In this document: positions 29,603 through 46,704 of the stretch, in pieces
Layout: every line of letters begins with the position of its first letter
How positions within the stretch are numbered: position 1 is the stretch's first letter
NCBI GenBank assembly: GCA_018812715.1
Contig: JAHJCT010000030.1
Location: 23,318 to 87,317, forward strand
Origin: Candidatus Micrarchaeota archaeon
GTDB lineage: Archaea > Micrarchaeota > Micrarchaeia > Anstonellales > Bilamarchaeaceae
Length of the DNA: 64,000 bases
Reading direction: 5' to 3'
Notes under the pieces: generated by a model
The model's database searches: none
The model's input: the letters and a program-made list of their open reading frames with translations, nothing else
Told to the model about the DNA's origin: nothing
Position numbers and translations under genes: made by a program

Positions 29603-30403
29603 TCATTTAAACCTGAATGCAATGATAGCAAGATCATCCTCTTTTGGGACATACATGCGATCATCTAATTGCACCTTTCCATTTTTGATTCTTTTTTTGA
29701 TTTCTTTTACTAGTTTTTCAACTATTAATTTGGGTTTTTTTGTTTTGCCGATTATGTTTTTTAGATCTTCTGTGCCCGAACAATCAGTGAGATACCCCTC
29801 ACGTATTTTAACATAAAGATTATCATTAAGACAATCAGTTGCCAAGATAAGCAAATCGCCTTTTTTGAGTTTTCCTTCCCTTGTATGTATATGTATATCT
29901 GAACCCAATGGACCAAGCACAGAAGTAACAATGTTTCTAAAATAAAAATACTTGAATATGGAGTGTTGATCTTCCACAATTCTACCTAATGGAAGTTCGA
30001 GAACTACGTTGTCATTTATCCCATAAATAGGTGAATCCCCCACGCCAGCAACTATTGTAGAACCATCTTTTGAGATAAAACAGATTGTTGCTGTAGTATA
30101 TCCATGTTTTATTTTTTTATTCACATCGGAAAATGCTTTTTGAATAAGCTTTTCATCAGCCTTATCATATTTTTTGAGATAGGTGAGGAGAGTAGATGCT
30201 GCAAGAGATGACGCTGAGGCAGCACCAGGTTCTCCGCTTACACCATCGAAGACCCCTAGAATGGCTTTTTTATCATCCATATAAACAAATGCTGAATCTC
30301 CGCATTCTTCATGTCCTCTTTGTACTAAACAAAAACATTCGCCAATCTTTGTGTTAGAAGCAAAAGTTGCAGTGTTTTTGACCTTTGTTCCAAGTATCAG
30401 CAT
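29603..30403 (-). CDS. PP2C-like serine/threonine phosphatase
   Basis: GVFDGVSG, VAGVGDSPIY and LILATDCLNDNL motifs resemble PP2C/SpoIIE metal-binding motifs. Confidence 0.6.
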   Translation of the reverse strand: MLILGTKVKNTATFASNTKIGECFCLVQRGHEECGDSAFVYMDDKKAILGVFDGVSGEPGAASASSLAASTLLTYLKKYDKADEKLIQKAFSDVNKKIKHGYTTATICFISKDGSTIVAGVGDSPIYGINDNVVLELPLGRIVEDQHSIFKYFYFRNIVTSVLGPLGSDIHIHTREGKLKKGDLLILATDCLNDNLYVKIREGYLTDCSGTEDLKNIIGKTKKPKLIVEKLVKEIKKRIKNGKVQLDDRMYVPKEDDLAIIAFRFK

Positions 30404-31482: not shown

Positions 31483-32476
31483 CTATTTTTGATATATATC
31501 TCATTTTTTCTTCTTTGGATAAGAAAGAAGCATTGAATGAATTTTTAGCTAATTTGATTATGTCATCTCTGTTTAATGTTAGGGCATGTGAAATAGCCAA
31601 GTAATTTTCATTTAAGTAACCTCCAAAATAGGCTGGATCATCAGAATTAATTGTCACAAATAACCCTTTTTCCATCATTAGTTTCAATGGATGTTTTTTG
31701 AGATCTTTTACGACTGCCAATTTCAGATTAGATAACGGACAAACTGTAAGGGGCATCTTTCTTTTGACTAATTCATTAACCAAATTTTCATCATCCAAAG
31801 CATGATTGCCGTGATCTATGCGTGAGACATGTAACAGACCAAGAGCTTCCCGGATATAACTTGCCGGCCCTTCCTCACCAGCGTGGGCTACAGTCAAAAA
31901 TCCTTCTTTTCTTGCTTTGTCAAAAACATGCTTAAATTTGGATGGGGGATTGCCAACTTCAGAAGAATCCAAACCAACAGCGATTATCTTATCTTTATAT
32001 GGTAAAGCTTCTTCTAAAGTTTTCATTGCTGAATCAGCATCAAGATGCCTAAGAAAACACATGATTAACTTTGTTGAAATCTTGGAATCTTCAAGCGCAT
32101 TATAAATTCCATTGATAACTGTCTTGAATTTGATACCGCGTTCAGTATGTGTTTGAGGATCAAAAAATATCTCAGTGTGTAAGATGTTTTGTTGTTGTGC
32201 TTTTTCAAGATAGGCAGTTGTTAAATCATAAAAATCCTTTTCCTTGATTAGAACCTTTGCACCCTCATAATAAAGATCTAAAAAATCCTGCAGATTGCTA
32301 AAATTGTAGGCTGCTTTCAGTTCTTCTATTGAGTTATACTTTAGCTCAATTGAATTGCGTTGCGCAATTTTGAACATTAAATCCGGCTCAAAAGTACCTT
32401 CAATATGTAAATGTAGTTCTGATTTTGGTATTCCAGTTATGAATTGATCTAAATCATTTTTCATCAAGAAATTCAC
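31472..32476 (-). CDS. add: Adenosine/adenine deaminase family protein
   Basis: PKSELHLHIEGT metal-binding motif, HAGE and SINSDDPAYFG-like (TINSDDPAYFG) motif. Confidence 0.88.
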   Translation of the reverse strand: MNFLMKNDLDQFITGIPKSELHLHIEGTFEPDLMFKIAQRNSIELKYNSIEELKAAYNFSNLQDFLDLYYEGAKVLIKEKDFYDLTTAYLEKAQQQNILHTEIFFDPQTHTERGIKFKTVINGIYNALEDSKISTKLIMCFLRHLDADSAMKTLEEALPYKDKIIAVGLDSSEVGNPPSKFKHVFDKARKEGFLTVAHAGEEGPASYIREALGLLHVSRIDHGNHALDDENLVNELVKRKMPLTVCPLSNLKLAVVKDLKKHPLKLMMEKGLFVTINSDDPAYFGGYLNENYLAISHALTLNRDDIIKLAKNSFNASFLSKEEKMRYISKIDAW

Positions 32477-33653
32477 CCATTAACACAGTTGCATAAGAAC
32501 CTGCAGGAAGTGTAAACCTGAATGTATTTGAATTGAAATTAAAATCTTTTATAGGGGCCAGTAATGTGCGGTAAGTACCTTTTGAGGCAATTTCAGGCAT
32601 TTCATTCATTCTAAAATCATCTTTTTCTATGCCTAATTCTTCAAGAAGTGTTTTTTCTTGCTCATTTAGCGGGGTTTCATAGCCTATGAGTTTTCCTACA
32701 ACCCAGCCAGAATCCTGGAACTTTTTTATATCTGGAAAGCCATTTTTTTCTCCACAATAATATTCTCCTTTTGCTGGTTCTAGTGAATTATTCTCAATAC
32801 GATTTGAAAGAAGCTGATTGAAAATATGTGATTGAAGGGCATGGATGAACATCAATAGGATTGGCCTTGGAAGCCTTTTGAGTGCTTCTACATAATTTTC
32901 CTGAGATTCCATAAGATAAGAAATAAGTTTTCTTTCAAGTTGAAGGTGTTTTGGAAAATCGATCAAAGCTTGTTTGTAATTTTTTGTTTGCTTTAGAGCA
33001 TTTCTTGCCGCTTGTGCTTGGGGATTTTGTTCTTTATCTGAATCACAAAGAAATATTTCTACTGCTTCATCAAATTTCCCTTGAAGCATTTTCAAACCAA
33101 TTAAGTGTGTATTTCTTCTTGTTGAACCAAATCTTTGTTCTCCAAAGTAATTTGGGAATCTGCCATCCAATTCGGATGAGATTTGTTTTACTTTTTCCAC
33201 GTTTTCTGCTCCTTCTACTCTTATTGTGAAACGATTGCCTAGAAGCTGTCCAAGCCTCACTTTATCCTTTGCATACCATGCTCCGTTTATCTGCATGTCT
33301 TTGATTTTCAGATCCAACACTCTTTCTTTAGGAATATCAAAAACAGAAACGCGTTGAGTGGAAACTGCTGTTTTATCTTTTGTCCCTGCAAAACTAATTC
33401 TTTTTTGTCCTATTGCAAGCCTTTTTGCAATTTCATAAAGCGCTGAAGAAGTAGACCAATCTTTTTTTTGGAGAATAAAATGTGTAAACTTGCCCTCTTC
33501 ATCTTTGATAGAGCATTGTTTATCTATTTCAAGAAGAGTTCCGTCTGGCATTATCTCCTCTACCAGGAAATCTTCAGGTTTTGATTTTATAGTGCCTCCA
33601 ATCCCAGGAGTCTTAGAAAGATAATTCATTATTAGTAATATTGCCGGAAACAT
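32454..33653 (-). CDS. truD: tRNA pseudouridine synthase TruD (Pus7-like)
   Basis: GIGGTIKSKPEDFLVEE and FAGTKDKTAVSTQ (catalytic Asp) motifs. Confidence 0.88.
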   Translation of the reverse strand: MFPAILLIMNYLSKTPGIGGTIKSKPEDFLVEEIMPDGTLLEIDKQCSIKDEEGKFTHFILQKKDWSTSSALYEIAKRLAIGQKRISFAGTKDKTAVSTQRVSVFDIPKERVLDLKIKDMQINGAWYAKDKVRLGQLLGNRFTIRVEGAENVEKVKQISSELDGRFPNYFGEQRFGSTRRNTHLIGLKMLQGKFDEAVEIFLCDSDKEQNPQAQAARNALKQTKNYKQALIDFPKHLQLERKLISYLMESQENYVEALKRLPRPILLMFIHALQSHIFNQLLSNRIENNSLEPAKGEYYCGEKNGFPDIKKFQDSGWVVGKLIGYETPLNEQEKTLLEELGIEKDDFRMNEMPEIASKGTYRTLLAPIKDFNFNSNTFRFTLPAGSYATVLMGEFLDEK

Positions 33654-33737: not shown

Positions 33738-34301
33738 ATGACTGTTAAAAAAACAATACAAAGAGAAGCAACAAAACCGAGTTTAAAATCATTGGAACCA
33801 AAACTTGATGTTGATTTTCATAAGCAGAGAGTTGAGGCAATTTTAAGAAGGCATGAAAGCCTAGATTCTGCAAGAGAATTGCTGGGTTATGATATTGTAG
33901 CTGCAACATCTGATGGAGTGAAAAGAGTTAGAATTAGTAAAACACGCTCATTCAATGGTATTAGCGGGAGAACAACAAACAGAGAAGGAATAGAGCAGGA
34001 TGCTGGAATGATTTATATTATGAAATTCAGATCGACAAAATTCCTTAATATTACGACTGGAAGAGCTGGAAATCCAACATGTGTATGGATAGAAGAAGCA
34101 ATTGATGTTGATACTGGTGAGAAATTAAAAAGCAACAAATTATTGAGACATTTGGAGCTAGAAGGATCTGATCGACAGCCAATTTTTTCTGACAGAACGG
34201 CTATTGTTGCTGGTGAGACCCCAAGTAAGATTGAACGGCTTAATCCTGCCAAGAATGGTGCTTCAGAAAATACTACTGGCGTATTCCAAGCGCACTTCTG
34301 A
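33738..34301 (+). CDS. Hypothetical protein (187 aa), same strand and immediately upstream of the repeat island
   Basis: ORF only; no recognised motif. Confidence 0.45.
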   Translation: MTVKKTIQREATKPSLKSLEPKLDVDFHKQRVEAILRRHESLDSARELLGYDIVAATSDGVKRVRISKTRSFNGISGRTTNREGIEQDAGMIYIMKFRSTKFLNITTGRAGNPTCVWIEEAIDVDTGEKLKSNKLLRHLELEGSDRQPIFSDRTAIVAGETPSKIERLNPAKNGASENTTGVFQAHF

Positions 34302-34331
34302 CTTATGAGCGACTGTGCCCCTTTGGAAGGG

Positions 34332-34338
34332 TTTTTAA
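34332..34338 (+). promoter_or_regulatory. TATA-like box (TTTTTAA) for repeat-island unit 1
   Basis: Lies 25-31 nt upstream of ATG 34363 (leaderless-type spacing). The 33 nt before the ATG align position-for-position with those before ATG 37238. Confidence 0.5.
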
Positions 34339-34362
34339 GTGTTTATAGGTATATATTTGTGT

Positions 34363-35202
34363 ATGGCTAGAGGTAAACAGGTAGAATTATTGCCACCAGG
34401 AAGAGAGAGCCCTAGAACTTCAAGGAGAGAACCACTAGCTGAAGCGATTCAAAAAAGACCGCATGGATTTTTCACAAAGATGAGTGATAAAGAACTCGTT
34501 GGATATGCAAAGAGAATCATTGAAGAAAAAAAGATAAGTGGAAGGAAGGAATTACAGGAAGTTGATGGAAGTTTGTATAATGTTTTGTTGAAGAGAAATT
34601 TGCTAGATACATTTGGATTTGGAAGAAAAAAAGAGGGCAGGAATTGGAAAGCAATGACTGATGAAGAGATTGTTAGATATGCAAAGACGTTTATGAGGGA
34701 AAGAGAGATAACTGGAAGAGCTGAGGTGTACCGGGCAGATAAAGCATTGTATGAAGTTTTGAGAAGAAGAAAATTGCTGGATGAAGTAGGGTTTGAAGAA
34801 AAACAACGTGATTGGAGTTCAATGAGTGATGAGGAGATTGTTAGATATGTAAGGAAGTTTATTGAAGAAAGTGGAATAACCCGACCGAGAGAACTGCAAG
34901 ATACTAATTCTTGGTTATATGGAGTTTTGTGGAGAAGAGGGTTACTAAGAAGTATTAATTTCGATAGAAAAAGAGTTGATTGGAGTTCAATGAGTGATGA
35001 GGAGATTATTGATCATGCTAGGATGGTTATAAGAGAAAGGGAGATAACTGGGAGAGCACAATTATCAAAAGAGATTAGTGGATTGTACCACGCTTTGAAT
35101 AAAAGAAAATTGTTAGACCAAGTCTTTGCTGACATAGAACAATCAAGAAGAAAAGAAGCAATCCTGCAGGTTGTTGAGGCAATGGAGGAATTTGCATGCT
35201 AG
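34363..35202 (+). CDS. 56-aa-repeat protein A1 (4 repeats)
   Basis: Starts MARGKQVE (tracked GTG at 34339 is probably too early). Has 4 copies of W-x2-M-[ST]-DEE-[IL]-V-x-Y-A..F..E.GI.GR.EL...D.GLY.VL.RR.LLD.VGFE. Tail is IEQSRRKEAILQVVEAMEEFAC. Confidence 0.8.
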   Translation: MARGKQVELLPPGRESPRTSRREPLAEAIQKRPHGFFTKMSDKELVGYAKRIIEEKKISGRKELQEVDGSLYNVLLKRNLLDTFGFGRKKEGRNWKAMTDEEIVRYAKTFMREREITGRAEVYRADKALYEVLRRRKLLDEVGFEEKQRDWSSMSDEEIVRYVRKFIEESGITRPRELQDTNSWLYGVLWRRGLLRSINFDRKRVDWSSMSDEEIIDHARMVIREREITGRAQLSKEISGLYHALNKRKLLDQVFADIEQSRRKEAILQVVEAMEEFAC

Positions 35203-36194
35203 CTTCAAAGCAGAGAATACTTTGGACTATTCCTAAAGATCCAAAGTTTAGCTGGATTCTTCCTTTAGATAGTGCAAACAGAAGATCTTGGAGTGTAATG
35301 AGAGATCATGAACTAGTAAAATTTGCAAGGAAGTTTATGGAAGAGGAAGGGATAAACGGGAGGCATGAATTGGAGAAAGCTGATAAAGGTGTATATGGCA
35401 TTTTGTGGAAAAGGAAACTACTTGGTGAGATTGGATTTGAGAATAACCAACGAGATTGGAATTCTATGAATGATGAAGAGATTGTTGAATATACTGAAGA
35501 GTTTATGAGAGAGGGCATAAGAGAACGGGAAGAATTACGAAAAGCGGATGAAGGACTGTATGCTGCTCTATTTAGAAGGAAATTATTGGACAAGGTGGGA
35601 TTTGAGGAGAAAAGAGAAGAACGTGGTTGGACTTCAATGAGTGATGAAGAAATTGTTGGGTATGCTAAGAAGTTTATGGAAGAAAATGGAATAAGCAGAA
35701 GAGGAAAACTGCAGAAGGCTGATGGGGGGTTGTATAGAATTTTGAGAAAAAGAAGATTGCTTGATGAAATAAGATTTGAAGAGAGAAGACGGGATTGGAA
35801 AGCAATGAGTGATGAGAAACTTATTGGATATGCTAAGGGATTTATTGAAAAAGAAGAGATTGGCGGGACAAGAGAATTGATGAATGCTGATAAAGGATTA
35901 TACAGTGTTTTGAGGAGAAGGAAATTGTTGGATAAGGTGGGATTTGAAACAAAGAAAAGAGAGATGCGTAACTGGAAGGCAATGACTGATGATGAGATTA
36001 TTAAATATGCTAGAAAGACCATGGAAGAAGAAGGAATAAGTGGACGGGAAGAATTGAGGAAGGTTGATAGTGGATTGTGTAGTGTTTTGAGGAGAAGAAA
36101 ACTTCTAGATCGAGTTTTTTCTTCTATAGATCAATCAAGAAGAAGAGAAGCAATCTTGCAGGTTGTTGAAGCAATGGAGGAATTTGCATGTTAG
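35196..36194 (+). CDS. 56-aa-repeat protein A2 (5 repeats)
   Basis: ATG embedded in GCATGCTAG of the upstream stop; GGAGG 7 nt upstream. Leader MLASKQRILWTIPKDPKFSW, 5 repeats, conserved ...EEFAC tail. Confidence 0.85.
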   Translation: MLASKQRILWTIPKDPKFSWILPLDSANRRSWSVMRDHELVKFARKFMEEEGINGRHELEKADKGVYGILWKRKLLGEIGFENNQRDWNSMNDEEIVEYTEEFMREGIREREELRKADEGLYAALFRRKLLDKVGFEEKREERGWTSMSDEEIVGYAKKFMEENGISRRGKLQKADGGLYRILRKRRLLDEIRFEERRRDWKAMSDEKLIGYAKGFIEKEEIGGTRELMNADKGLYSVLRRRKLLDKVGFETKKREMRNWKAMTDDEIIKYARKTMEEEGISGREELRKVDSGLCSVLRRRKLLDRVFSSIDQSRRREAILQVVEAMEEFAC

Positions 36195-37192
36195 CTTCAA
36201 GACAGCAATTTATTTGGACTATTCCTAAAGATCCAAAGTTTAGTTGGATTGTTCCCTTAACTTCTAGCAATAATAGAGCCTGGAGGGTGATGAGTGATGA
36301 TGAGTTAGTGAAATATGCTAGAAAGTTTATAGAAGAGGAAGGGATAAAAAGAGTTGGAGAATTAAGAAGAGTCGATAAAGGATTGTATCTGATTTTGAGA
36401 AGGAGAGGGTTGATAAATGAAATCAAGTTTGAAGAGAAAATGCAGAAGAAACGTAATTGGAATTCTATGAGTGATGAAGAATTGGTTGAATATACTAAGA
36501 AGTTTGTGGAAGAGAGAAGGATAAGTGGGAGATATGAATTGGAGAAGACAGATAAAGGATTGTATCAGGTTTTAATGAAAAGAGGATTGTTGGATGAAAT
36601 AGAACTTGAGAATAAAAACCATGGAAAACGTAATTGGAAAGCAATGACTAATGATGAAGTTGTTGAACATACTAAGAAGTTTGTGGAAGAGAAGAAGATG
36701 AGTGGGAGATTTGAATTGGAGAAGGCAGATACTGGATTGTATGATGTGTTGAGAAAAAGAGGACTATTGGATGAAGTTGGATTTGAAGAAAAATATCGTG
36801 ATTGGGCTTCTATGAGTGATGAAGAGATTGTTGGATATGTAAGGAAGTTGATGGAAGAAAAAGGGATAAATGGAAGGAGAGAATTGAATAAAGCTGATTC
36901 TGGATTGTATTCTATTTTGAAGAGGAGAAAGTTATTGAATGATATAGGGTTTGAAGAGAAACAACGTAATTGGGCTTCTATGAGCAATGATGAGATTGTT
37001 GAATATGCTAAAGGATTTATGAGGGAGGAGAGAATAAAAAAGCGAAGAAAATTACGAAATGCGAACAATGGATTGTATAGTGCTTTGTGGAGAAGAAAAC
37101 TTCTAGATCGAGTTTTTTCTTCTATAGATCAATCAAGAAGAAGAGAAGCAATCTTGCAGGTTGTTGAGGCAATGGAGGAATTCTCAAATTAA
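36188..37192 (+). CDS. 56-aa-repeat protein A3 (5 repeats)
   Basis: Same junction architecture (GCATGTTAG); leader MLASRQQFIW; 5 repeats; tail variant ...EEFSN ends unit 1. Confidence 0.85.
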   Translation: MLASRQQFIWTIPKDPKFSWIVPLTSSNNRAWRVMSDDELVKYARKFIEEEGIKRVGELRRVDKGLYLILRRRGLINEIKFEEKMQKKRNWNSMSDEELVEYTKKFVEERRISGRYELEKTDKGLYQVLMKRGLLDEIELENKNHGKRNWKAMTNDEVVEHTKKFVEEKKMSGRFELEKADTGLYDVLRKRGLLDEVGFEEKYRDWASMSDEEIVGYVRKLMEEKGINGRRELNKADSGLYSILKRRKLLNDIGFEEKQRNWASMSNDEIVEYAKGFMREERIKKRRKLRNANNGLYSALWRRKLLDRVFSSIDQSRRREAILQVVEAMEEFSN

Positions 37193-37206
37193 CACTAAAA
37201 GTAACC

Positions 37207-37213
37207 TTTATAA
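37207..37213 (+). promoter_or_regulatory. TATA-like box (TTTATAA) for repeat-island unit 2
   Basis: Same distance from ATG 37238 as the unit-1 box; shared taagtgtttat...tgtATGGCTAGAGGTAAACAGGTAGAA. Confidence 0.5.
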
Positions 37214-37237
37214 GTGTTTATTTATATATAAATATGT

Positions 37238-40200
37238 ATGGCTAGAGGTAAACAGGTAGAAACACCCCTATCAAGAAACAAATTCGAAGCATTCCTCAGA
37301 GAGAACAAGCCGTTAGGATATCAAGAATATATAAAAGTAAAGAAAATTGCATTGGAGAACGGCGAAGATCCCATAAGAGAATTCCGAAAGGTCATAACCG
37401 AGACTGAAGGCCTTGGAAAAACAGTTGCCATGAATTTTTGGCTTATGGCAATAGGTAAAAGACTGGCCATACCTGAAAATGATGATGTTGTATTTCTTCG
37501 TGAGATACTGGCAAGTAATAAAATTGATCTTGATATGCTTATTGATCTTCTTGGAGGGGATCAGAGAAGAATTGCAGACGTTATATGTGCCCTGCATCTT
37601 GACAAGCTTGAAAACGCAGGGTATTCCTCAGTTTACATGATAGTAGACAAAATTATCAAAGGAAAAGCAGGAAGAAAAGGAACTCCTCCGCCCCCAGGAA
37701 AGACATTTTTTGATGATATTCCTGATGAATTGCTTGTAGGTAATATTGATGCGCTTGAGATACTGAAGGCCTATGGTATTGAGGAATACCAGAGGATGTA
37801 TCAAAATAATTATGAAGCAGCAGAACGACAACTTGAAGAAAAAATAAGAAACTGTAAAGAGCCAGGCAAAAAGATAATTCTTCAGAGTATTTATGATTAT
37901 TACAGTGAACTCAAAAAACTCAATATTCCAGGCATAGTTGATGAGACAATAGACAAAGAAACTGGTGGATTAGTTGGATTTCCGGCAGTCCATCAAAAGA
38001 TTGGGGCAAGATTTATTGCAGAAAAAAAACGGACCCTCATTGCTGATGAAATGGGGCTCGGTAAAACAGCACTGGCAGTTATTGCAAAAAATCTTATTGA
38101 AAGTGAAGAAGGAAGGAAAACAGCTGTTGCAGTTGTTCCTAATAATGTTCTTGCACAGTGGGAAGAACAAATTAATCTGTGGAATACGGAAAGAAGATCA
38201 GTAGTTGTAATAACAAGCAAGAACAAGACAGAAGCGTTAGAACAAATCGAGAGGGAGCGACCAGATTTTGTACTTGTTTCATATGATATGATTTTTAGAA
38301 AGCACAACGGAGGGACAGTGGCAAATAAATTAGAAACAATATGCGATTACCTCATCCTTGATGAAGTCCATAACACAAAAGAGGCAAAAAGTCTGAGAAG
38401 TAAAGGCGTTGTTGGACTTTCAAGAAGGGCCGAATATGTTACTTTGCTCAGTGGCACACCAGTACCAAATAGAGTAGAAGATCTAGGAGTCATTGCAAGT
38501 ATACTATGGAACCATGAATTTACTGCAAAAGATTTTAACAAAAAATTCAAACACAATCCAAGAGTAGTTAGGGAAAGAATACTTCCGAGAATGTTGAGAA
38601 GAAGGAAAAGAGATACTTTTGGGGAAGGGCAATGCACAAGACATGTCGTTGCTGTTCCAATGACGAAGCAACAAGAACAAGAACACAAAAGACTTGAATT
38701 GAACCCTGATGGAGTAGGATCTTTGGAACTCATAGCACAGCTTCGGAGATGTGCTCTTGATCCTCAATTAGTAGGAATTAGTGAAGAATCACCAAAATAT
38801 CAAAGACTTGTAGAAATGCTAGTAGACCATCATGATGATAGTCCTGCTGTTGTTTTCAGCAGTGAGCTTAAGGAAGGCGTTTTGGATAAACTTGTTGGAG
38901 AAATAGAAGGATATGGTCTTCGGGTTGCAAGAATTGATGGTGATCCAGAAAGAAGTGGAAAACACAGAGATAGAATTCTAACGGAATTTAATGAAGAAAA
39001 ATATGATGTTGTTGTAGCAACACTGGCAACCCTTGGGGAAGGAATAGACAAACTAACTGTTTCTCACCGGGGCTATTTCATAGATATTCCATTTACAGAA
39101 GCCAAACTTGCACAAGGAATAACAAGATTAGATAGAAAAGGGCAGAAGAATCCTGTTGATATCTACTTGATGGTATCGGAAAATAGTATTGACGAATTAC
39201 TATTAAGACTGATAGATCAAAAGAGAATATTGGGGGAATTTCTTATTGATGGAATGGAACTTACAGACTTTGAAAAAAGAATAATAGAAGAAGGGGAAAG
39301 GCTTGTTGAATGCGGAACAGATCCATTGAGAAAGCTTTACCGTTTCTTTGGTGCAACTTACAACAGAACTACAGAATCAGTAATAAGATTACTTGGGGAT
39401 CCGGTAATTGGAAGATTTGTTGCAGAAGAATACTGGAACAACTTTGAAGGATCATTCTATGGAAATATGAATAATCTTGTTGCCAGTGTAATCCGAGGAT
39501 TAGAGGGGGAGTTCGGTAAAATTCTAGATTTGGCATCCGGACCATGTTGTCTTGCCAGGGCTTTAGAACGACCAGTCGTATCATTAGATGCTAATGCAGT
39601 AGCGCTGGAAGTTGGAAAAAGGATGCTTGGTGAAAAAGCAGGGGAAACAGTTGTTGGAAGCTTTACAAAGTTGCCATTTAAGGAGGAAACATTTGATTGT
39701 ATAGCCTTTTCACTTGGTTTATTGCATTCTGCTGTGGATGAACGGGAAGGAATAATCAGGCAGATCAACAGGGCAATGAGAAAAGATGGGGTAGTTATAA
39801 TTACAATGCCAAGCGGGGAAGGGCGTTATGATAAATTAGCAAAAATCTTACCAATGCTTGGATTCAGGGTATTGCCAGATATGACAGGAACTGCTCAAGG
39901 AATTGACAGAACGGATTTTGAATGTACAATTATTTCTGCTGTAAAAGTAAGTGACCCTATTGTTGATAGCGTGCCGCTTGAACTTTTTGATTTCCAAAAA
40001 GATAAAATGGAAAGTGAGGACTGGGAGGCCAGTGTATCAAAAAAAGTGAAAAGAGAAGAATGTCATCAGTTTGAGATAGATGGCGTTTCAGTTGAAGATG
40101 CAAGGGTGACTATAACTCCTCCGAAAAATGAATCACAAACAGCAAGAAAAGAATTTCGTAAGCTTAAACCAAGTGAGCGTTTGGGCTTCCTTATTGATAG

Positions 40201-40399
40201 ATACAAATCGCTCACACATGTACCTCAAAAAGATTTGGATGAACTTGGAATAGAAGTTGTTAGTGTTGGAAGAGGGAATAGACAGTATTGGACTGTAGTA
40301 TTGAAAGAAGAAGCTGGAATGAACGCAGATCATAAGGCATTTGTAAATGGTAGGCCGTCTAGTGAGATAGAGAAAAGACAAAGGAGGGCGGTTAGATGA
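37238..40399 (+). CDS. SNF2-family helicase fused to a class-I SAM-dependent methyltransferase (1053 aa)
   Basis: Helicase motifs: I LIADEMGLGKT, II LILDEVHN, III LSGTPVPNRVEDL, VI QGITRLDRKGQ. Then MTase motif I ILDLASGPCCL, FDCIAFSLGLLH and MRKDGVVIITMP. N-terminal 250 aa and C-terminal 190 aa are unassigned. Confidence 0.85.
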   Translation: MARGKQVETPLSRNKFEAFLRENKPLGYQEYIKVKKIALENGEDPIREFRKVITETEGLGKTVAMNFWLMAIGKRLAIPENDDVVFLREILASNKIDLDMLIDLLGGDQRRIADVICALHLDKLENAGYSSVYMIVDKIIKGKAGRKGTPPPPGKTFFDDIPDELLVGNIDALEILKAYGIEEYQRMYQNNYEAAERQLEEKIRNCKEPGKKIILQSIYDYYSELKKLNIPGIVDETIDKETGGLVGFPAVHQKIGARFIAEKKRTLIADEMGLGKTALAVIAKNLIESEEGRKTAVAVVPNNVLAQWEEQINLWNTERRSVVVITSKNKTEALEQIERERPDFVLVSYDMIFRKHNGGTVANKLETICDYLILDEVHNTKEAKSLRSKGVVGLSRRAEYVTLLSGTPVPNRVEDLGVIASILWNHEFTAKDFNKKFKHNPRVVRERILPRMLRRRKRDTFGEGQCTRHVVAVPMTKQQEQEHKRLELNPDGVGSLELIAQLRRCALDPQLVGISEESPKYQRLVEMLVDHHDDSPAVVFSSELKEGVLDKLVGEIEGYGLRVARIDGDPERSGKHRDRILTEFNEEKYDVVVATLATLGEGIDKLTVSHRGYFIDIPFTEAKLAQGITRLDRKGQKNPVDIYLMVSENSIDELLLRLIDQKRILGEFLIDGMELTDFEKRIIEEGERLVECGTDPLRKLYRFFGATYNRTTESVIRLLGDPVIGRFVAEEYWNNFEGSFYGNMNNLVASVIRGLEGEFGKILDLASGPCCLARALERPVVSLDANAVALEVGKRMLGEKAGETVVGSFTKLPFKEETFDCIAFSLGLLHSAVDEREGIIRQINRAMRKDGVVIITMPSGEGRYDKLAKILPMLGFRVLPDMTGTAQGIDRTDFECTIISAVKVSDPIVDSVPLELFDFQKDKMESEDWEASVSKKVKREECHQFEIDGVSVEDARVTITPPKNESQTARKEFRKLKPSERLGFLIDRYKSLTHVPQKDLDELGIEVVSVGRGNRQYWTVVLKEEAGMNADHKAFVNGRPSSEIEKRQRRAVR

Positions 40400-41226
40400 G
40401 GCAGCTTCAGAAACAGAAAATTGGAAGAGATGTAAGAGCTGCAGCGAAAGGGCCATTAATTGAAGGGATAGTTCAGTTGGATAGTAGAGGAAGAAGAAAA
40501 TGGAGTCCAATGAGTGATGAAGAGATTGTTGAATATGCAAGGAAGTTTATGGAAGAGAAAGGAATAAGTGGAAGAACAGAATTGAGTATGGTTGATAGAG
40601 GATTGCATAATGTTTTGAAAAGAAGAGGATTGTTGGATGAAGTAGGATTTGAAGATAAAAGAAAAGATTGGAAAGTAATGAGTGATGAAGAGATTGTTAG
40701 ATATGCTAGAGAGTTTATGAGAGAGGAAAGGATAAGAAGGAAGGGAGAATTGTATGAAGTTGATCCTGGATTGTATTATGTTTTGAAGAAAAGAAGATTG
40801 TTGGATGAAGTGGGGTTTGAAGATAAATATCGTGATTGGAAAGAAGTAAGTGATGGTGGACTAGTTGAATATGCAAGGAAGTTTATGGAAGAGAAGGGGA
40901 TAAGTGGGAGGAAGGAATTGAAGAGAATAGATTCTGGATTGTATGAGATTTTAAGAACGAGAAAGTTATTGGATGCTATAGAATTTGAGGAGAGACAACG
41001 TGATTGGAGCTCAATGAGTGATGAAGAAATTGTTAGATATGCTAAGGAATTTGTGGAGGAGAAGGGAATAAGTAGGAGGAAGGAATTGGAGAAGGCTGAT
41101 GGAGGATTGTATGATGTTTTGAGGAGAAGGAGATTATTAGATCAAGCTTTTTCTTCTATAGATCAATCAAGAAGAAAAGAAGCAATCTTGCAGGTTGTTG
41201 AGGCAATGGAGGAATTTGCATGCTAG
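40396..41226 (+). CDS. 56-aa-repeat protein B1 (4 repeats)
   Basis: ATGA overlap with the SNF2 stop; AGGAGGG upstream. Leader MRQLQKQKIGRD...LDSRGRRKW; 4 repeats; EEFAC tail. Confidence 0.85.
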   Translation: MRQLQKQKIGRDVRAAAKGPLIEGIVQLDSRGRRKWSPMSDEEIVEYARKFMEEKGISGRTELSMVDRGLHNVLKRRGLLDEVGFEDKRKDWKVMSDEEIVRYAREFMREERIRRKGELYEVDPGLYYVLKKRRLLDEVGFEDKYRDWKEVSDGGLVEYARKFMEEKGISGRKELKRIDSGLYEILRTRKLLDAIEFEERQRDWSSMSDEEIVRYAKEFVEEKGISRRKELEKADGGLYDVLRRRRLLDQAFSSIDQSRRKEAILQVVEAMEEFAC

Positions 41227-42056
41227 CTTCTAGGCAGAGAATACTTTGGGAGATTCCTAGAAATCCAAAGTTCAGTTGGATTGTTCCCTTAACTTCTAGC
41301 AATAATAGAGCCTGGAGGGTGATGAGTGATGATGAGTTAGTGAAATATGCTAGAAAGTTTATAGAAGAAGAAGGGATAAGTGGGCTGTGGAAATTGAGTA
41401 AAGCTGATTCTGGATTATATTATGTTTTGTGGAAAAGAAAATTACTTGATAGGATAGGACTTGAAGATAAGAAACGTGATTGGAATTCAATGAATGATGA
41501 AGAACTTGTTGAGTATGCTAAGAGGTTTATGGAAGAAAATGAGATAAGTGAGAGAAGGGAATTGGAGAAGACTGACTCTGGGTTATATGGTGTTTTGAAG
41601 AGAAGAAGATTGCTGGATAGAGTAGGATTTGAAGATAAGATGCAGAAGAAACGTAATTGGAAATCAATGAGCGATGAAGAACTTGTTGAGTATGCTAAGA
41701 GGTTTATGGAAGAGAAGGAAATAAATGGGAGAAAGGACTTGTGGAAAGCTGATTCTGGATTGTATACTGTTTTGTGGAAAAGAAAATTGCTGGATAGAGT
41801 AGGATTTGAAGAAAAGAGACAGAGACAACGTGATTGGAATTCTATGAATGATGATGAGATTGTTGAGTATGCTAAGAAGTTTATAGAAGAGAATGGGATA
41901 AGTGAACGGGAGGAATTGAAGAAAGCTGATAGAGGGCTGCATCAAGTTTTGAAGATAAGAAAGCTCCTAGATACAGTTTTTGCTTCTATAGATCAGTCAA
42001 GAAGAAAAGAAGGAATCCTGCAGGTTGTTGAAGCAATGGAGGAATTTGCATGCTAG
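41220..42056 (+). CDS. 56-aa-repeat protein B2 (4 repeats)
   Basis: GCATGCTAG junction; leader MLASRQRILWEIPRNPKFSW; 4 repeats; EEFAC tail. Confidence 0.85.
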   Translation: MLASRQRILWEIPRNPKFSWIVPLTSSNNRAWRVMSDDELVKYARKFIEEEGISGLWKLSKADSGLYYVLWKRKLLDRIGLEDKKRDWNSMNDEELVEYAKRFMEENEISERRELEKTDSGLYGVLKRRRLLDRVGFEDKMQKKRNWKSMSDEELVEYAKRFMEEKEINGRKDLWKADSGLYTVLWKRKLLDRVGFEEKRQRQRDWNSMNDDEIVEYAKKFIEENGISEREELKKADRGLHQVLKIRKLLDTVFASIDQSRRKEGILQVVEAMEEFAC

Positions 42057-42877
42057 CTTCAAAGCAGAGAATACTTTGGACTATTCCTAAAGATCCAAAG
42101 TTCAGTTGGATTGTTCCTTTAGATAGTAGAAATAGAAGATCTTGGAGTGTAATGAGAGATCATGAGTTACTAAGATTTGCAAGAAAGTTTATGGAAGAAG
42201 AAGGAATACGTGGAAGGAAGGAATTGGAAAAGAGTGATAGTGTGTTGTATCAGACTTTGAAGAAAAGAAGATTGTTAGATGAGATAATATTTGAGAGAAA
42301 ACAAAGGAATTGGGAATCTATGAGTGATGAAGAATTGGTGAGATATGTTAGAAAGTTTATGGAAGAAGAAGGAATAACTGGAAAGGGAGAATTGAAGAAG
42401 GCCGATAATGGAGTGTATATAGTTTTGAGGAAAAGAGGATTGTTAGATAAATTATGGTTTGAAGAGAAACGCCGTGATTGGAATTTTGTGAGTGATGAAG
42501 AATTGGTGAGATATGCTAAGAAGTTTATGGAAGAGAGGGGGATAAGTGGAAGAAGTGAATTGAAGAAGACTGATTCTGGGTTGTATAATGTTTTGAGAAA
42601 AAGAAAATTGTCGGATGAAGTAGGATTTGAAGAAAAATGGCAGAAACGCCGTAATTGGAAATCTATAAGTGATAAGAGACTACTTAGATATACTAAGGAA
42701 TTTATAGAAGAGAGGGGGATAATCGGACGGACTGAATTGAAGAAGAGCGATGGAGGGTTGTATGAAGTTTTAAGAATAAGAAAATTATTAGATGCTGTTT
42801 TTGCTCCTATAGATCAATCAAGAAGAAAAGAAGCAATTTTGCAGGTTGTTGAGGCAATGGAGGAATTTGCATGCTAG
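42050..42877 (+). CDS. 56-aa-repeat protein B3 (4 repeats)
   Basis: GCATGCTAG junction; leader MLASKQRILWTIPKDPKFSW; 4 repeats; EEFAC tail. Confidence 0.85.
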   Translation: MLASKQRILWTIPKDPKFSWIVPLDSRNRRSWSVMRDHELLRFARKFMEEEGIRGRKELEKSDSVLYQTLKKRRLLDEIIFERKQRNWESMSDEELVRYVRKFMEEEGITGKGELKKADNGVYIVLRKRGLLDKLWFEEKRRDWNFVSDEELVRYAKKFMEERGISGRSELKKTDSGLYNVLRKRKLSDEVGFEEKWQKRRNWKSISDKRLLRYTKEFIEERGIIGRTELKKSDGGLYEVLRIRKLLDAVFAPIDQSRRKEAILQVVEAMEEFAC

Positions 42878-43530
42878 CTTCAAAGCAGAGAATACTTTGG
42901 ACTATTCCTAGAGATCCTAAGTTTAGTTGGATTGTTCCTTTAGATAGTAGAAACAGAAGATCTTGGGGTGTGATGAGAGATCATGAACTAGTTAGATTTG
43001 CAAGGAAGTTTTTGGAAGAGGAAGGGATAGGTAGTAGAGGAAAATTGGTGAAAGTGGATCCTAATTTGTATCAGGTTTTGAAGAAAAAGAAATTGTTAGA
43101 TAAAGTAGAATTTGAAGATAAGAAACGTGATTGGAAATCAATGAGTGATGAAGAGATTGTTGAGTATGTTAAGAGGTTTATGGAAGAGAAGGAAATAAAT
43201 GGGAGAAAGGACTTGTGGAAAGCTGATTCTGGATCGTATACTGTTTTGTGGAAAAGAAAATTATTGGATAGGATTGAATTTGAAAGAAAAAGAAGGAAAA
43301 CTCGGAATTGGAAGACAGTAAGTGATAATGAACTTGTTGAATATGTTAAGGAATTTATTGAAAAGGAGGGGATAAGTAAACGCGAAGAATTGAAGAAGCT
43401 TGATTATGGATTGTATAGTGCTTTGTGGAGAAGAAAATTGTTAGATCAAGCTTTTGCCCCTATAGAACAATCAGGAAGAAAAGAAGCCATTTTGCAGGTT
43501 GTTGAAGCAATGGAGGAATTTGCATGCTAG
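42871..43530 (+). CDS. 56-aa-repeat protein B4 (3 repeats)
   Basis: GCATGCTAG junction; same leader; 3 repeats; EEFAC tail. Confidence 0.85.
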   Translation: MLASKQRILWTIPRDPKFSWIVPLDSRNRRSWGVMRDHELVRFARKFLEEEGIGSRGKLVKVDPNLYQVLKKKKLLDKVEFEDKKRDWKSMSDEEIVEYVKRFMEEKEINGRKDLWKADSGSYTVLWKRKLLDRIEFERKRRKTRNWKTVSDNELVEYVKEFIEKEGISKREELKKLDYGLYSALWRRKLLDQAFAPIEQSGRKEAILQVVEAMEEFAC

Positions 43531-44516
43531 CTTCAAAGCAGAGAATACTTTGGACTATTCCTAAAGATCCAAAGTTCAGTTGGATTCTTCCTTTAGATAG
43601 TAGAAACAGAAGATCTTGGAGTGTGATGAGAGATCAGGAACTAGTTGAACTTGCAAGGAAATTCATGGAAGAAGAGAGGATATGTGGAAGGAAGCAACTG
43701 TCAAAGGCTGATATAGGATTGTACAGTATTTTGATCAGAAGAAAATTGTTGAATAAGGTTGAGTTTGAGGGAAAACAGAGAGATTGGAAAACAATGAGTG
43801 ATGCTGAACTGGTAGAATTTACAAGAAAATTTATGGAAGGAAGAAAGATATATGAGCGAAAAAAACTACAGAAACTTGATGGAGGATTGTATGAAGTTTT
43901 GAGAAAGAGAGGATTGTTGGATCAATTAGAATTTGAGGAGAAATACCGTGATTGGAAAGAAGTAAGTGATGATGGACTAGTTAAACATGCAAGGAAGTTT
44001 ATGGAAGAGAAGGGGATAAGTGAGAGAACTGAATTGAGAAAGGTAGATCTCGGATTGTACCAGGTTTTGAGAAAAAGAAAATTACTGGACAAAATAGGAT
44101 TTGAAGATAAAAGACAGAAACATCGCAATTGGAATTCAATGAGTGATGAAGAACTTGTTGCTTATGGTAAAGAGTTTATGAGGAAGAGAGGAATAACTGG
44201 ACGGCATGAATTAGAGAAGGCTGATTCTGGATTGTATCGCGTTTTGATGATTAGGGAAATTATGAATCAATTAGAATTTGAGGGGAAGCACCGTGATTGG
44301 GCTTCTATGAGTGATGAGGAGATTGTTGAGTATGCTAAGAAGTTTATGGAAGAAAGGGAGATAAGCAGAAGAGGAAAACTGCAGAAGGCTGATAGGGGGC
44401 TATATGAGATTTTGAGAAAGAAAAGATTGCTTGAAGATGTTTTTGTTGACCTGGACCAATCAAGAAGAAGAGAAGCAATCTTGCAGGTTGTTGAAGCGAT
44501 GGAGGAATTTGCATGA
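43524..44516 (+). CDS. 56-aa-repeat protein B5 (5 repeats)
   Basis: GCATGCTAG junction; same leader; 5 repeats; tail ...EEFA ending in an ATGA overlap with the next gene. Confidence 0.85.
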   Translation: MLASKQRILWTIPKDPKFSWILPLDSRNRRSWSVMRDQELVELARKFMEEERICGRKQLSKADIGLYSILIRRKLLNKVEFEGKQRDWKTMSDAELVEFTRKFMEGRKIYERKKLQKLDGGLYEVLRKRGLLDQLEFEEKYRDWKEVSDDGLVKHARKFMEEKGISERTELRKVDLGLYQVLRKRKLLDKIGFEDKRQKHRNWNSMSDEELVAYGKEFMRKRGITGRHELEKADSGLYRVLMIREIMNQLEFEGKHRDWASMSDEEIVEYAKKFMEEREISRRGKLQKADRGLYEILRKKRLLEDVFVDLDQSRRREAILQVVEAMEEFA

Positions 44517-45331
44517 GACAACTGCATGCTACTAAAATTGGAAATCCTAGAACTTCAAGAAAAGAACCTCTAGCTGAGAGAATACTTAAAAGAAGGAATT
44601 TTACTGATGAAGAAATAGGAACAATTATACAAAGAAGAACTGAACTTATTCAGCAAATGACAGACTGGAAAATAGCAACTATAATTGCACGGGAATTGAA
44701 TAGAAGCCCAAGATCAGTAGAAACTAAGATTAAAGAATTAATTAAAGACGGCACATTAGAGGAAAATCCAAACAAAAAGAAGAAACATCCTTTCAATGCT
44801 GAAGAAAATAGACAGATAGCTGAAGAACTTACAGCTTCTGGTTTATGTGATGGTGCAATAGCAAAAGTTATTGCAGAAAAAACAGGAAGAAGAGTAAGTT
44901 CTGTAAAAACAAGCATATGTGCAGACAGAAACAAAAAACGTCTTGGAAAAAATCCAAACAATCAAAGAACAATGAGATCAGAAGAAAGCAAGTGGATAAT
45001 GCGCAGAAGAAGAGAATTGATGGATCTAGGATTGAATGACACTTCAATATCAAGAGTGCTTGAATCAAAAACAAGAAATGCCAGTGCAATAAGAAGAACA
45101 ATCTGGGAGCTTAAAAAAGTAGGAATGATAATGGAAAATTATAACGATATGAAGGAAAGTAAAGAAATTGAAAGAATGATATTGAGAAGAGAAGAACTCA
45201 TGGCAGAAGGAAAAAATGATGATGAAATTGCAAAGCAAATAGCAGAGGAAATGAAAAGACAGATTAGAACTATATCATTTATGATCTGGAGAATAGTAAG
45301 AATTGGAAAATGCAGAATTAATAAAAATTAG
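44513..45331 (+). CDS. Protein with four tandem Myb/SANT-like (HTH) repeats
   Basis: 4 modules of about 60 aa, e.g. FTDEEIGTIIQRRTELIQQMTDWKIATIIARELNRSPRSVETKIKEL. Pattern [FW]-T-x-EE...W/I-x-x-IA..L.R....V resembles Myb/SANT. N-terminal PRTSRKEPLAERILKR is shared with A1. Confidence 0.6.
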   Translation: MRQLHATKIGNPRTSRKEPLAERILKRRNFTDEEIGTIIQRRTELIQQMTDWKIATIIARELNRSPRSVETKIKELIKDGTLEENPNKKKKHPFNAEENRQIAEELTASGLCDGAIAKVIAEKTGRRVSSVKTSICADRNKKRLGKNPNNQRTMRSEESKWIMRRRRELMDLGLNDTSISRVLESKTRNASAIRRTIWELKKVGMIMENYNDMKESKEIERMILRREELMAEGKNDDEIAKQIAEEMKRQIRTISFMIWRIVRIGKCRINKN

Positions 45332-45867
45332 ATTGCCTTGAGAAGATCTGCTTTAGTTACAATACCAACGAGCCTTCCTTTATTCTCAATAAGAACCGCA
45401 GAGTAATAGCATAAAAGATCTGCAATAGCATCTACTAAAGAATTGGCCGGGACTGTCGGGAAGCTGCTGCGCATAACATCTTCAACTAATGTTGATTTGA
45501 AATTACGATCACCATCAGATACTAGTTCAACGACCATGCTCTCTGATATACTGCCAATGCATTTTCCATCTTCAAGAACAGGAAGCTGGGAAATGTCTTT
45601 TGTTCTCATAAGTTTTACTGCTTTTTCAAGAGTATCCCCGGGTTTTACTGAAATGATGTTCAATGACATCACTTCTCTGACCATTTTCTTTTCTTTATTC
45701 TGCTCTTTTTCAAGTGCCTGAAAGATCTGCACTACCTTGGAATAAGCAGGATCGATTTTTCCTGATTCAATCTTGGCTATTAATGACTGGGATACTCCAG
45801 CTAAATCAGCGAGCTGCTTCTGTGTGAGTCCAAGATTCTTCCGCATTTTGGGGATTTTTTTAATCAT
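45328..45867 (-). CDS. XRE-type HTH plus CBS-pair transcriptional regulator
   Basis: LGLTQKQLADLAGVSQSLIAKIESGKIDP HTH followed by two CBS-like modules; 4-nt convergent overlap with the island's last gene. Confidence 0.8.
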   Translation of the reverse strand: MIKKIPKMRKNLGLTQKQLADLAGVSQSLIAKIESGKIDPAYSKVVQIFQALEKEQNKEKKMVREVMSLNIISVKPGDTLEKAVKLMRTKDISQLPVLEDGKCIGSISESMVVELVSDGDRNFKSTLVEDVMRSSFPTVPANSLVDAIADLLCYYSAVLIENKGRLVGIVTKADLLKAI

Positions 45868-45900
45868 AAATTATTCTTTTAGGAATATAAAAATAAAAAG

Positions 45901-46704
45901 CTATACTGAAGCTGCATGATCAATAAAATTGATAAGTACCTTCTCATCATGGCGTTGCTGGGCTTTTATTTTTATTCTTGATATGTCCATCATTTTGGAG
46001 AGCCAGCGTTTTCTTTCATTTACTAGTTCACTTATATTATGAGGCAAATAATCAGGATGGAATTGTACGCCCCAAGTAGATTCTCCAATCCTATATGCCT
46101 GGACCATGCCGGGAATATCACCATAGGCAAGTACTCTAGTGCCTCTTGGTGGATGGGGCAGGTAACAAAAATGAGAGAAAAGCCCTTCAAAATCATTCGG
46201 CAGATCTTTGAAAAGAACATCATACTTACCATATTCAGTTTTGTAAACCGGTGCAAAGCCTATCTCTGCATTATGGGGTTTTGGTATTTTTCTTACAAAT
46301 GCCCCATGAGCTGCTGCAATGGCCTGATGCCCAAAACAAATGCCAAGCATGGAAGTGGAAGAAGGAACATCACGTATGAATTCTAGAAGATTTTCCATCC
46401 AGGGGTGTTTTTGTATACCCCCAACATCGATATGAAGTTTTGAACCGGGTATAATAATAGTATCATATTTTTCAATATCAGGATAGTCGTGTTTTCTCCC
46501 TGCTGGCCAGTAGAGTCTTGGTTTGATTGTAACATTGCGCCAGTGTGCAAATGCCTGAACCCTTCTGCTGACTAGCTCACTAATCGTCCATTTGGCGCCT
46601 CCATAAGACATCATCTCCTGATCTCTGGGGCTGCAATCTATGATTGCTACTTTCAAAGGCTCTGCATCACATACATAACCCATAACTGTCACCATTGGGT
46701 CCAT
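45901..46704 (-). CDS. Class-I glutamine amidotransferase-like protein
   Basis: MLGICFGHQ nucleophile motif and downstream QFHPD(Y) His motif. Confidence 0.7.
   Translation of the reverse strand: MDPMVTVMGYVCDAEPLKVAIIDCSPRDQEMMSYGGAKWTISELVSRRVQAFAHWRNVTIKPRLYWPAGRKHDYPDIEKYDTIIIPGSKLHIDVGGIQKHPWMENLLEFIRDVPSSTSMLGICFGHQAIAAAHGAFVRKIPKPHNAEIGFAPVYKTEYGKYDVLFKDLPNDFEGLFSHFCYLPHPPRGTRVLAYGDIPGMVQAYRIGESTWGVQFHPDYLPHNISELVNERKRWLSKMMDISRIKIKAQQRHDEKVLINFIDHAASV

Follow-up and report, generated by a model that had tools for sequence, protein, structure and literature searches.

A Micrarchaeota gene block in which an SNF2 ATPase–methyltransferase fusion is encoded together with paralogous arrays of small helical repeats

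Prokaryotic SNF2-family ATPases are known mostly from defence systems, from RapA and from repair, and the remodelling targets of the archaeal ones are, to our knowledge, largely unknown. Here we describe a gene block at 34.3–45.3 kb of a 64,000-nucleotide (nt) stretch of DNA from a Candidatus Micrarchaeota archaeon (assembly GCA_018812715.1, contig JAHJCT010000030.1, positions 23,318 to 87,317 of the forward strand); this whole stretch is called the window, and unless stated otherwise all coordinates are those of the window. The central gene of the block encodes a protein of 1053 amino acids (aa) that, by its sequence, is an SNF2-family ATPase fused to a class-I S-adenosylmethionine (SAM)-dependent methyltransferase. 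It is surrounded by eight paralogous genes for proteins made of tandem type-A repeats (R1–R8), and the block is closed by a gene for a protein with four repeats of a different type (type B). We give about an even chance to the reading in which this DNA-translocating ATPase-methyltransferase has the repeat proteins as its modular, nucleic-acid-binding partners or substrates, the arrays contacting DNA and the constant protein ends, or handles, contacting the enzyme.

Among the described systems, DISARM, Zorya, Dpd and BREX share the SNF2 helicase core with the block (in DrmD, ZorD, DpdE and BrxH, respectively), and DISARM and BREX also have a methyltransferase in the system. In contrast to these systems, the methyltransferase of the block is not of the DNA N6/N4/C5 type, and the locus lies at a syntenic position among housekeeping genes. 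The enzyme scored 49.8 bits with the DrmD model (cut-off 610), 26.3 bits with ZorD (cut-off 1500) and 41.1 bits with DpdE (cut-off 500), while its alignment with BrxH, like those with the other defence models in PADLOC and NCBIfam, covers only the generic SNF2 core. The remaining proteins of the block, the repeat proteins among them, match nothing in PADLOC; DrmA/B/C, ZorA/B, DpdA-K and PglX/PglZ are absent, and neither Pfam nor PADLOC detected a nuclease or other defence protein in the block. A first-pass annotation, made from the sequence alone, had recognised none of the named systems here, and this judgement holds for DISARM, BREX, Dnd/Dpd, Zorya and type I/III restriction–modification, as the generic SNF2 matches are far below the curated cut-offs.

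The ISWI/CHD remodellers resemble the locus in combining an SNF2-family core with small three-helix modules of the helix-turn-helix (HTH) kind, which in our case are operon-coupled to the enzyme and in Patescibacteria are fused to it. However, Pfam detected no SANT, SLIDE, HAND, chromo, HSA or bromo domain in the 1053-aa enzyme, the modules form separate multi-copy proteins with 2–8 repeats each in the examined loci, and the ATPase is fused to a SAM methyltransferase and is not known to have a histone partner. The likeness would be one of domain logic rather than of orthology, and we do not place the enzyme in the ISWI/CHD group. The best PDB sequence relatives of the ATPase are SRCAP, ISWI and CHD1, with RapA also among the matches. 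These matches concern the generic SNF2 core, with HAND-SANT-SLIDE not among the detected domains, and the analogy with ISWI drawn in the first-pass annotation remains speculation.

The repeat proteins, in turn, recall Myb R1R2R3, TAL effectors and GcrA-like HTH proteins: small helical modules follow one another in an array, the variable residues lie on one helical face, and aromatic and basic anchor residues are conserved. With the Pfam models of the Myb, HTH and GcrA kind, however, type B gives sub-threshold matches only, and type A gives none. TAL repeats are approximately 33–35 aa long, form a continuous superhelix and carry two specificity residues per repeat, whereas the type-A unit is 56–59 aa long and is modelled as a separate domain (whole-protein predicted template modelling score, pTM, 0.32), with no TALE-like superhelix and no fold match, which sets these proteins apart from the TAL effectors.

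For the enzyme, three Pfam domains were found above threshold: SNF2-rel_dom (E = 5.5e-26, 91.8 bits, cut-off 24.9), Helicase_C (E = 2e-09, 38.1 bits, cut-off 23.5) and Methyltransf_11 (E = 1.2e-10, 42.4 bits, cut-off 21.2), so that the fusion proposed at first sight stands. A lineage-specific N-terminal domain (aa 1 to approximately 190) is followed by the SNF2 core (approximately 250–690), the Methyltransf_11 domain (approximately 750–880) and a conserved C-terminal domain; both terminal domains are conserved in 15 aligned orthologues, and neither has a Pfam match. We found approximately 20 orthologues with identity of 45–62%, the named ones all being Candidatus Micrarchaeota. The Walker A motif DEMGLGKT, the motifs DEVH, SGTP and RLDRKGQ and the SAM motif LDxASGP are invariant across the 15 aligned orthologues, and the SLDAN of the methyltransferase is conserved in the same alignment. 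As both the ATPase and the SAM-binding motifs are invariant, the enzyme looks active. The methyltransferase resembles generic class-I enzymes (UbiE-like and Rrp8-like Methyltransf_8). The (D/N/S)PP(Y/F) motif is absent from it, with no DPPY/NPPY-like motif in aa 700–900 of the orthologue alignment, and hence it is not a typical DNA methylase; Pfam also gave no N6_Mtase, N6_N4_Mtase or MethyltransfD12 match in the enzyme.

Within 34.3–45.3 kb, every long open reading frame (ORF) in the ORF listing is on the plus strand. The eight type-A genes hold 34 copies of the 56–59-aa unit (168–177 nt), distributed from R1 to R8 as 4+5+5+4+4+4+3+5, and the final unit of every protein merges into its tail. 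The counts by regular expression and by hidden Markov model (HMM) agree, and Tandem Repeats Finder and a direct-repeat search yielded the same 168/177-nt periods; thus, the eight same-strand genes with 34 units and the three scales of repetition, as described in the first-pass annotation, are confirmed. The repeat HMM found no type-A unit in the rest of the 64-kb window, and Rfam and tRNA scans of the block found no RNA genes. The coding-strand GC skew of the repeat genes (34000–46000) reaches +0.42 to +0.60, compared to approximately 0–0.15 elsewhere, which is due to purine-rich K/E/R/G codons; long antisense ORFs that are spurious, e.g. the one at 35306–36022 (−) of 238 aa, arise from this composition as well.

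The type-A consensus is WxxMSDEELVxYAKKFMEExGIxGRxELxKADxGLYxVLxKRKLLDxVxFExKxxx. In an alignment of 1097 repeats, W1, L39, R42 and L44 are conserved at 93–95%, and columns 26, 29, 33, 37 and 40, which point outwards on helices 2 and 3, are the most variable in the helical core. The AlphaFold2 model of a single repeat (predicted local distance difference test, pLDDT, 90.6; pTM 0.72) has helices at 6–20, 25–31, 33–41 and 45–48; the repeat is thus predicted to be a small domain of four helices, of which helices 2–3 bear a hypervariable face. In the model of full-length R5 (pLDDT 81.6, pTM 0.32), folded domains are joined by low-confidence linkers, the leader is disordered and a long C-terminal helix spans residues 250–277. 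Given the low whole-protein pTM and the low-confidence linkers, the domains would rather be separate beads than a solenoid. The isoelectric point (pI) of the type-A proteins is 8.7–9.7. A type-A profile search among 1.8 billion proteins returned 646 clusters (50% identity); the number of repeat stretches per protein reaches 23.

Known folds and families give little hold on type A. Neither the whole proteins nor the 34 repeats taken singly pointed consistently to a Pfam family (DUF7026 appeared sporadically and below threshold), and all that sequence and profile searches of PDB returned were spurious, low-complexity alignments with designed repeat proteins. The Foldseek search with one repeat, which the first-pass annotation had advised, yielded no significant match, the E-values being approximately 6 or more against PDB and 0.96 or more against BFVD; the full-length R5 model found nothing in PDB at E < 0.6. 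HNH_repeat, the Pfam helical repeat associated with homing endonucleases, was considered as a candidate for type A and rejected, as it is absent at E ≤ 1 for the whole proteins and the 34 repeats alike; the BFVD fold matches to proteins named "endonuclease-like" or "HNH endonuclease" have E-values of 3 or more.

The tail ...ID/EQSRRKEAILQVVEAMEEFAC is found at the end of all eight type-A genes, while the leader MLASKQRILWTIPKDPKFSW... (protein starts MLASKQRILWTIPKDPKFSWIVPLDS…) is common to six of the eight only, the leaders of R1 (MARGKQVE...REPLAEA) and R4 (MRQLQKQ...KGPLIEG) being different but related. The earlier statement that all eight genes share a leader and a tail is therefore right for the tail and has to be restricted for the leader. 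In the window, DNA identity is 88% for tails and 85% for leaders, compared to 67–70% for the repeats. As the leaders and tails are shared across the repeat types, as shown below, and are more identical than the repeats, we consider them to be constant handles around a variable array.

Neighbouring repeat genes overlap by 7 nt (ATGCTAG), with a −1 frame shift each, and the junctions of the SNF2 gene with R4 and of R8 with the type-B gene are 4-nt overlaps (ATGA). The tail codons ATG-GAG-GAA provide a GGAGG approximately 9 nt upstream of the following ATG. Programmed frameshifting into one polyprotein was considered and rejected, since every gene starts with a leader that is homologous to those of single-gene relatives, and a GGAGG stands approximately 9 nt before its ATG.

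The block consists of two units opening with the same promoter-like sequence and the same MARGKQVE codons, in agreement with the first-pass annotation: a 55-nt segment with the promoter-like sequence and the first eight codons is duplicated with 87% identity (34332–34386 and 37207–37261). A TATA-like element (TTTTTAAG/TATATA) is located approximately 31–24 nt before the ATG in unit 1, and TTTATAAG at −31..−24 in unit 2. By what is generally known of archaeal promoters, such spacing fits leaderless mRNAs and thus two putative transcription units. For R1, a GTG at 34339 is listed as an alternative start, but the real one probably is the ATG at 34363, as it corresponds to the SNF2 gene start in the duplicated segment. 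The start MARGKQVE is not kept in the SNF2 orthologues, which begin otherwise and align from ...RN+FEA... on; therefore, the promoter and the eight codons common to R1 and the SNF2 gene look recently and locally duplicated. The gene preceding the block ends with a terminator-like hairpin (34319–34331) and a T-run.

HMMs of the enzyme and of both repeat types (A and B) were run over the fetched homologue loci, and eight enzyme-bearing Micrarchaeota loci were obtained (the window, L001, L004, L005, L006, L007, L087 and L088). A scan of GTDB genomes with the SNF2 alignment was swamped by generic SNF2 genes (the pattern ADEMGLGK is generic), and the relevant loci in it were L007 and the distant L008 only. 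The gene directly downstream of the enzyme encodes a type-A or type-B repeat protein in all eight loci, usually overlapping the enzyme stop codon, and in five of the eight, type-A genes also lie just upstream. Thus, the co-occurrence of repeat genes and SNF2-methyltransferase genes, which the first-pass annotation had proposed as a check, is observed in each of these eight loci. The minimal set consists of the enzyme, one type-A and one type-B protein (L006), while L004 has 4 + 9 type-A genes and one type-B gene; the number of repeat genes varies between 1 and 13 per locus across related genomes. L005 contains four type-B paralogues and no type A, and its type-B proteins share the ends of type-A proteins (leader …KKVEPLEEG…, tail …ILGVVKALEEFGEEE). 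Tails are near-identical inside one genome and different between genomes.

The flanks of the block in L004 are the same as in the window (Trm1, TruD … HTH-CBS, MetRS), and in L087 and L001 the block also is beside MetRS. The order Trm1/TruD ... HTH-CBS/GATase/MetRS is retained around the block in several divergent Micrarchaeota, and R5 had no relatives in a scan of viral contigs. The locus is chromosomal and inherited vertically, its copy number varies, and it is not mobile; the term "island" of the first-pass annotation does not fit, because the syntenic position among housekeeping genes is the same in these divergent genomes.

Two further loci, L003 and L089, both from sample ERZ25039514, contain arrays of 5 and at least 6 type-A genes on separate long contigs, with very similar tails (…ARDAVIDALxxFA…) and no SNF2 neighbour. 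In L089, short ORFs with 1–2 type-A repeats each and shifting frames (positions 4295–6491 of that locus) precede six intact type-A genes; they look like decayed paralogues, as in birth-and-death turnover.

Distant homologues of the enzyme, of 1458–1757 aa, were also found (e.g. P0089, GCA_029004215.1, and P0088), one of them being named Patescibacteria in NCBI. They are co-linear with the archaeal enzyme from aa ~193 to the C-terminus, that is, over SNF2, Methyltransf_11/8 and the C-terminal domain (BLASTP 27% identity, E = 2e-63; hhalign E = 3e-72). Their N-terminal 500–800 aa consist of tandem helical repeats in 5–11 copies: approximately 11 × 68 aa (GW…LA…HPEWF) in P0088, the same repeat in P0090 (8 or more) and P0092, and 7 × 74 aa (LRAAHAIWKA) in P0089. 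These genes, too, lie among housekeeping genes. The Patescibacteria "SNF2-related protein" giants are thus similar to the block in having a homologous co-linear core and associated tandem small helical repeats, but their repeats are fused N-terminally in one polypeptide, whereas in the block they are in separate paralogous genes, each with its own leader and tail. The 68-aa and 74-aa repeats are not detectably homologous to type A, and hhalign gave no homology of type A with any of the repeat types designated B, C and D in our comparison. Over the helix-turn-helix core, the 68-aa repeat gave a weak hhalign match to type B (E = 2e-4, probability 45%).

As the arrays are fused to the enzyme in one lineage and operon-coupled to it in another, a classical sign of joint function, this arrangement suggests that the enzyme and the repeat arrays act together. 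The fused arrays occupy the position of the ~190-aa N-terminal domain of the archaeal enzyme, and for this reason we propose that domain as the candidate docking site of the separate repeat proteins.

The type-B repeat follows the pattern xTxEEIxLIKRRYxELVxEGLNDxxIAxxIGxELGRSxxSVxxKI…ENPN. In the window, the leader of the type-B protein (...RTSRKEPLAER...) is of the shared kind and is repeated in R1 (34411–34458 and 44546–44593, 79% identity). By sequence, type B looks HTH-like: its sub-threshold matches are of the HTH type (HVO_A0114, GcrA with E = 8e-4, which is below the cut-off, TrmB, Sigma70_r4 and HTH_11), and a type-B relative from L005 matches the PHROG family phrog_323, "transcriptional regulator", with E = 1e-23. 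Weak profile matches to the Myb-like chain of DMP1 and the SANT chain of DnaJC1 (E = 0.2–0.5) were also seen, and no Myb model is among the Pfam matches at E ≤ 1. Of the Myb/SANT-like HTH protein with four repeats seen in the first-pass annotation, the four HTH-like repeats are retained and the Myb/SANT label stays tentative. Relatives of the type-B protein were found by a local phmmer search over the fetched loci, an indexed search with the protein having retrieved itself only. Nearly all type-B repeats in L004, L005, L006 and the window (44513–45331) end in (E)NPN within the inter-repeat linker. In short type-B proteins, a Cys-containing end, G(G)C(P/R)xNxN, replaces the shared tail.

Beyond the observed gene anatomy, conservation, linkage, shared handles, Patescibacteria fusion and intact catalytic motifs, we infer DNA binding, docking, remodelling and a methylation substrate as follows. 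The constant component would be an ATP-driven double-stranded-DNA translocase of the SNF2 family whose fusion partner is a class-I SAM methyltransferase of the type that acts on small molecules, proteins or RNA. The variable component would consist of translationally coupled paralogues, each having a disordered basic leader (…K/R…EPLAEG…) followed by independently folded helical domains of type A (56–59 aa) or type B (~62 aa), 2–8 in the examined loci and up to 23 matched stretches family-wide; a predicted amphipathic C-terminal helix (…VFAxIEQxRxxxAxxxVVxAxEEF) would close the type-A and some of the type-B proteins. If so, the arrays would bind DNA as beads on a string, using the hypervariable face of helices 2–3 beside a nearly invariant Arg, and the leader and tail would serve as handles docking all paralogues to one partner, most likely the lineage-specific N-terminal domain of the enzyme. 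Moving along DNA at the expense of ATP, the enzyme could load, reposition or strip the repeat proteins, and it could methylate them or the nearby nucleic acid, while the diversification of the paralogues would diversify the set of DNA targets.

Several observations weigh against this scheme. Type A has no significant match in Pfam, in PDB sequence/profile searches or in Foldseek, and a hypervariable helical face would fit protein binding equally well. The four repeat types are not detectably homologous, save for the weak signal between B and C. Type-A arrays also exist without an adjacent SNF2 gene (L003 and L089), so the repeat arrays may not depend on the enzyme, and the type-B protein of the window lacks the shared tail. 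Finally, the Shine-Dalgarno GGAGG and the next start codon are situated within the tail codons, and hence the conservation of tails and leaders may partly reflect a constraint at the RNA level; recent duplication or gene conversion could also contribute to it.

Other explanations have been considered besides a partnership between the enzyme and the repeat proteins. If there is no physical or mechanistic coupling, the repeat proteins would be lineage-specific transcription factors or nucleoid proteins of an ordinary kind, with nothing but the operon in common with the enzyme; the latter would have another target, e.g. RNA polymerase, as in the case of RapA, or rRNA/tRNA via its methyltransferase. 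The methyltransferase is indeed most similar to Methyltransf_11 and Methyltransf_8 (Rrp8-like), RapA is among the PDB matches, and the L003 and L089 arrays have no SNF2 neighbour; still, enzyme and repeat genes are adjacent in eight loci out of eight, and without functional coupling it is hard to account for repeat arrays fused to this core enzyme in a second phylum; we consider this variant unlikely, if worth keeping in mind. We find it quite unlikely that the block is an anti-virus or anti-plasmid defence system, with the enzyme as a conserved effector and the rapidly duplicating, hypervariable repeat proteins as subunits that sense foreign DNA or proteins or give specificity for them. Such a role would agree with the hypervariable surface positions of the repeats, with copy numbers ranging from 1 to 13 genes between related genomes, with birth-and-death of paralogues and decayed fragments in L089, and with the co-occurrence of an SNF2 helicase and a methyltransferase in DISARM, BREX-associated and Dpd systems (the matches here being generic). 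On the other hand, the block has neither a nuclease nor a DNA-type methylase motif nor any other defence protein, the DrmD, ZorD and DpdE scores are far under the cut-offs, no close relatives were detected on viral contigs, and the genomic context is fixed, being syntenic and housekeeping in Micrarchaeota and likewise housekeeping for the Patescibacteria homologues.

We regard as improbable that the repeat proteins are TAL-like effectors of an episymbiont interacting with its host, where the leader would be a delivery signal, the targets of the repeats would be DNA or proteins of the host and the adjacency to SNF2 would be incidental or regulatory. The family combines a constant leader, variable tandem repeats and a constant tail, its paralogues diversify rapidly, and it has so far been seen in host-dependent Micrarchaeota, with analogous arrays in Patescibacteria. 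However, the leader is not a recognisable signal peptide, the repeat genes are translationally coupled to the SNF2 gene in the loci having the enzyme (adjacent in all eight), and the Patescibacteria arrays are covalently joined to a cytoplasmic ATPase-methyltransferase of 1458–1757 aa, which argues for an intracellular role. An assembly artefact, by mis-joining or repeat expansion, would be very surprising: exact repeats of up to 95 nt at the gene junctions could permit short-read mis-joins between paralogues, but the repeat copies are diverged (mean DNA identity 67%, maximum 93%), all genes have intact frames with regular 7-nt overlaps, and independent assemblies from other samples contain the same architecture with 1–13 genes.

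The features of the block are listed in Table 1.

Table 1. Predicted features of the block in window coordinates
Feature	Coordinates	Strand	Remarks
Promoter-like block, unit 1	34332..34362	+	55-nt direct repeat with 37207–37261
R1, type-A protein	34363..35202	+	4 repeats; leader MARGKQVE...REPLAEA; conserved tail
R2, type-A protein	35196..36194	+	5 repeats; MLASKQ leader; 7-nt overlap with R1
R3, type-A protein	36188..37192	+	5 repeats; tail ending ...EEFSN; closes unit 1
Promoter-like block, unit 2	37207..37237	+	TTTATAAG at −31..−24 relative to ATG
SNF2-family ATPase/class-I SAM methyltransferase fusion	37238..40399	+	1053 aa; Pfam
R4, type-A protein	40396..41226	+	4 repeats; leader MRQLQKQ...KGPLIEG; GGAGG upstream; 4-nt ATGA overlap with SNF2 stop
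R5, type-A protein	41220..42056	+	4 repeats; full-length AlphaFold2 model
R6, type-A protein	42050..42877	+	4 repeats
R7, type-A protein	42871..43530	+	3 repeats
R8, type-A protein	43524..44516	+	5 repeats
Type-B protein	44513..45331	+	4 HTH-like repeats of ~62 aa; pI 10.2

Upstream of the block, the minus-strand genes at 29603–33653 encode, in order, a PP2C-like protein, a Trm1-like tRNA (guanine-N2)-dimethyltransferase, an adenosine-deaminase-like protein and a TruD-like protein; the first is named by synteny with PP2C_2/SpoIIE matches in L004 and L087, and the other three by sequence and synteny (PF02005 TRM, PF01142 TruD). The housekeeping neighbours across both phyla include MetRS, TruD, Trm1, FtsZ, pyruvate kinase and NrdR. 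Between the minus-strand genes and the block lies an ORF of 187 aa (33738–34301, +) with weak similarity to 3-methyladenine/methylpurine DNA glycosylases (NCBIfam E = 9e-6, 25 bits against a cut-off of 249; Pfam Pur_DNA_glyco E = 8e-4). It was rejected as a member of the system, as the related loci do not share it and instead have another gene, of 190 aa and on the minus strand, in this place. At the other side, a gene for a protein with HTH_3 and two CBS domains (45328–45867, −) converges on the end of the block; since its counterpart in L004 (E = 7e-64) is in the same position, it belongs to the conserved synteny, and it could be a regulator.

We found no description of the module in the literature on Micrarchaeota, DPANN and Patescibacteria. 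SNF2 ATPases, class-I methyltransferases and small helical repeats are of known kinds, while the type-A domain, the leader and tail handles and the association across DPANN and the candidate phyla radiation (CPR) appear undescribed. The analysis defines one new protein domain or more (the type-A repeat), along with the leader and the tail as a pair of short conserved handles. A conserved SNF2-methyltransferase now has a candidate partner or substrate encoded alongside, from a large unannotated family (646 clusters), and the same pairing occurs, as a fused gene, in Patescibacteria, which correspond among bacteria to these ultra-small symbionts; this provides a directly testable hypothesis on how two major uncultivated lineages organise or regulate their genomes. 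As a bolder and doubtful conjecture, DPANN and CPR/Patescibacteria may share an unrecognised chromatin-type machine, in which tandem small helical DNA-binding domains would cover or label the chromosome, and their arrays would be loaded, slid, evicted and/or methylated by the enzyme; in archaea they are encoded by expandable paralogue families with common docking handles, and in bacteria they are fused to the enzyme. If this is true, such a machine would be a prokaryotic, histone-independent counterpart of the remodeller-plus-reader systems.

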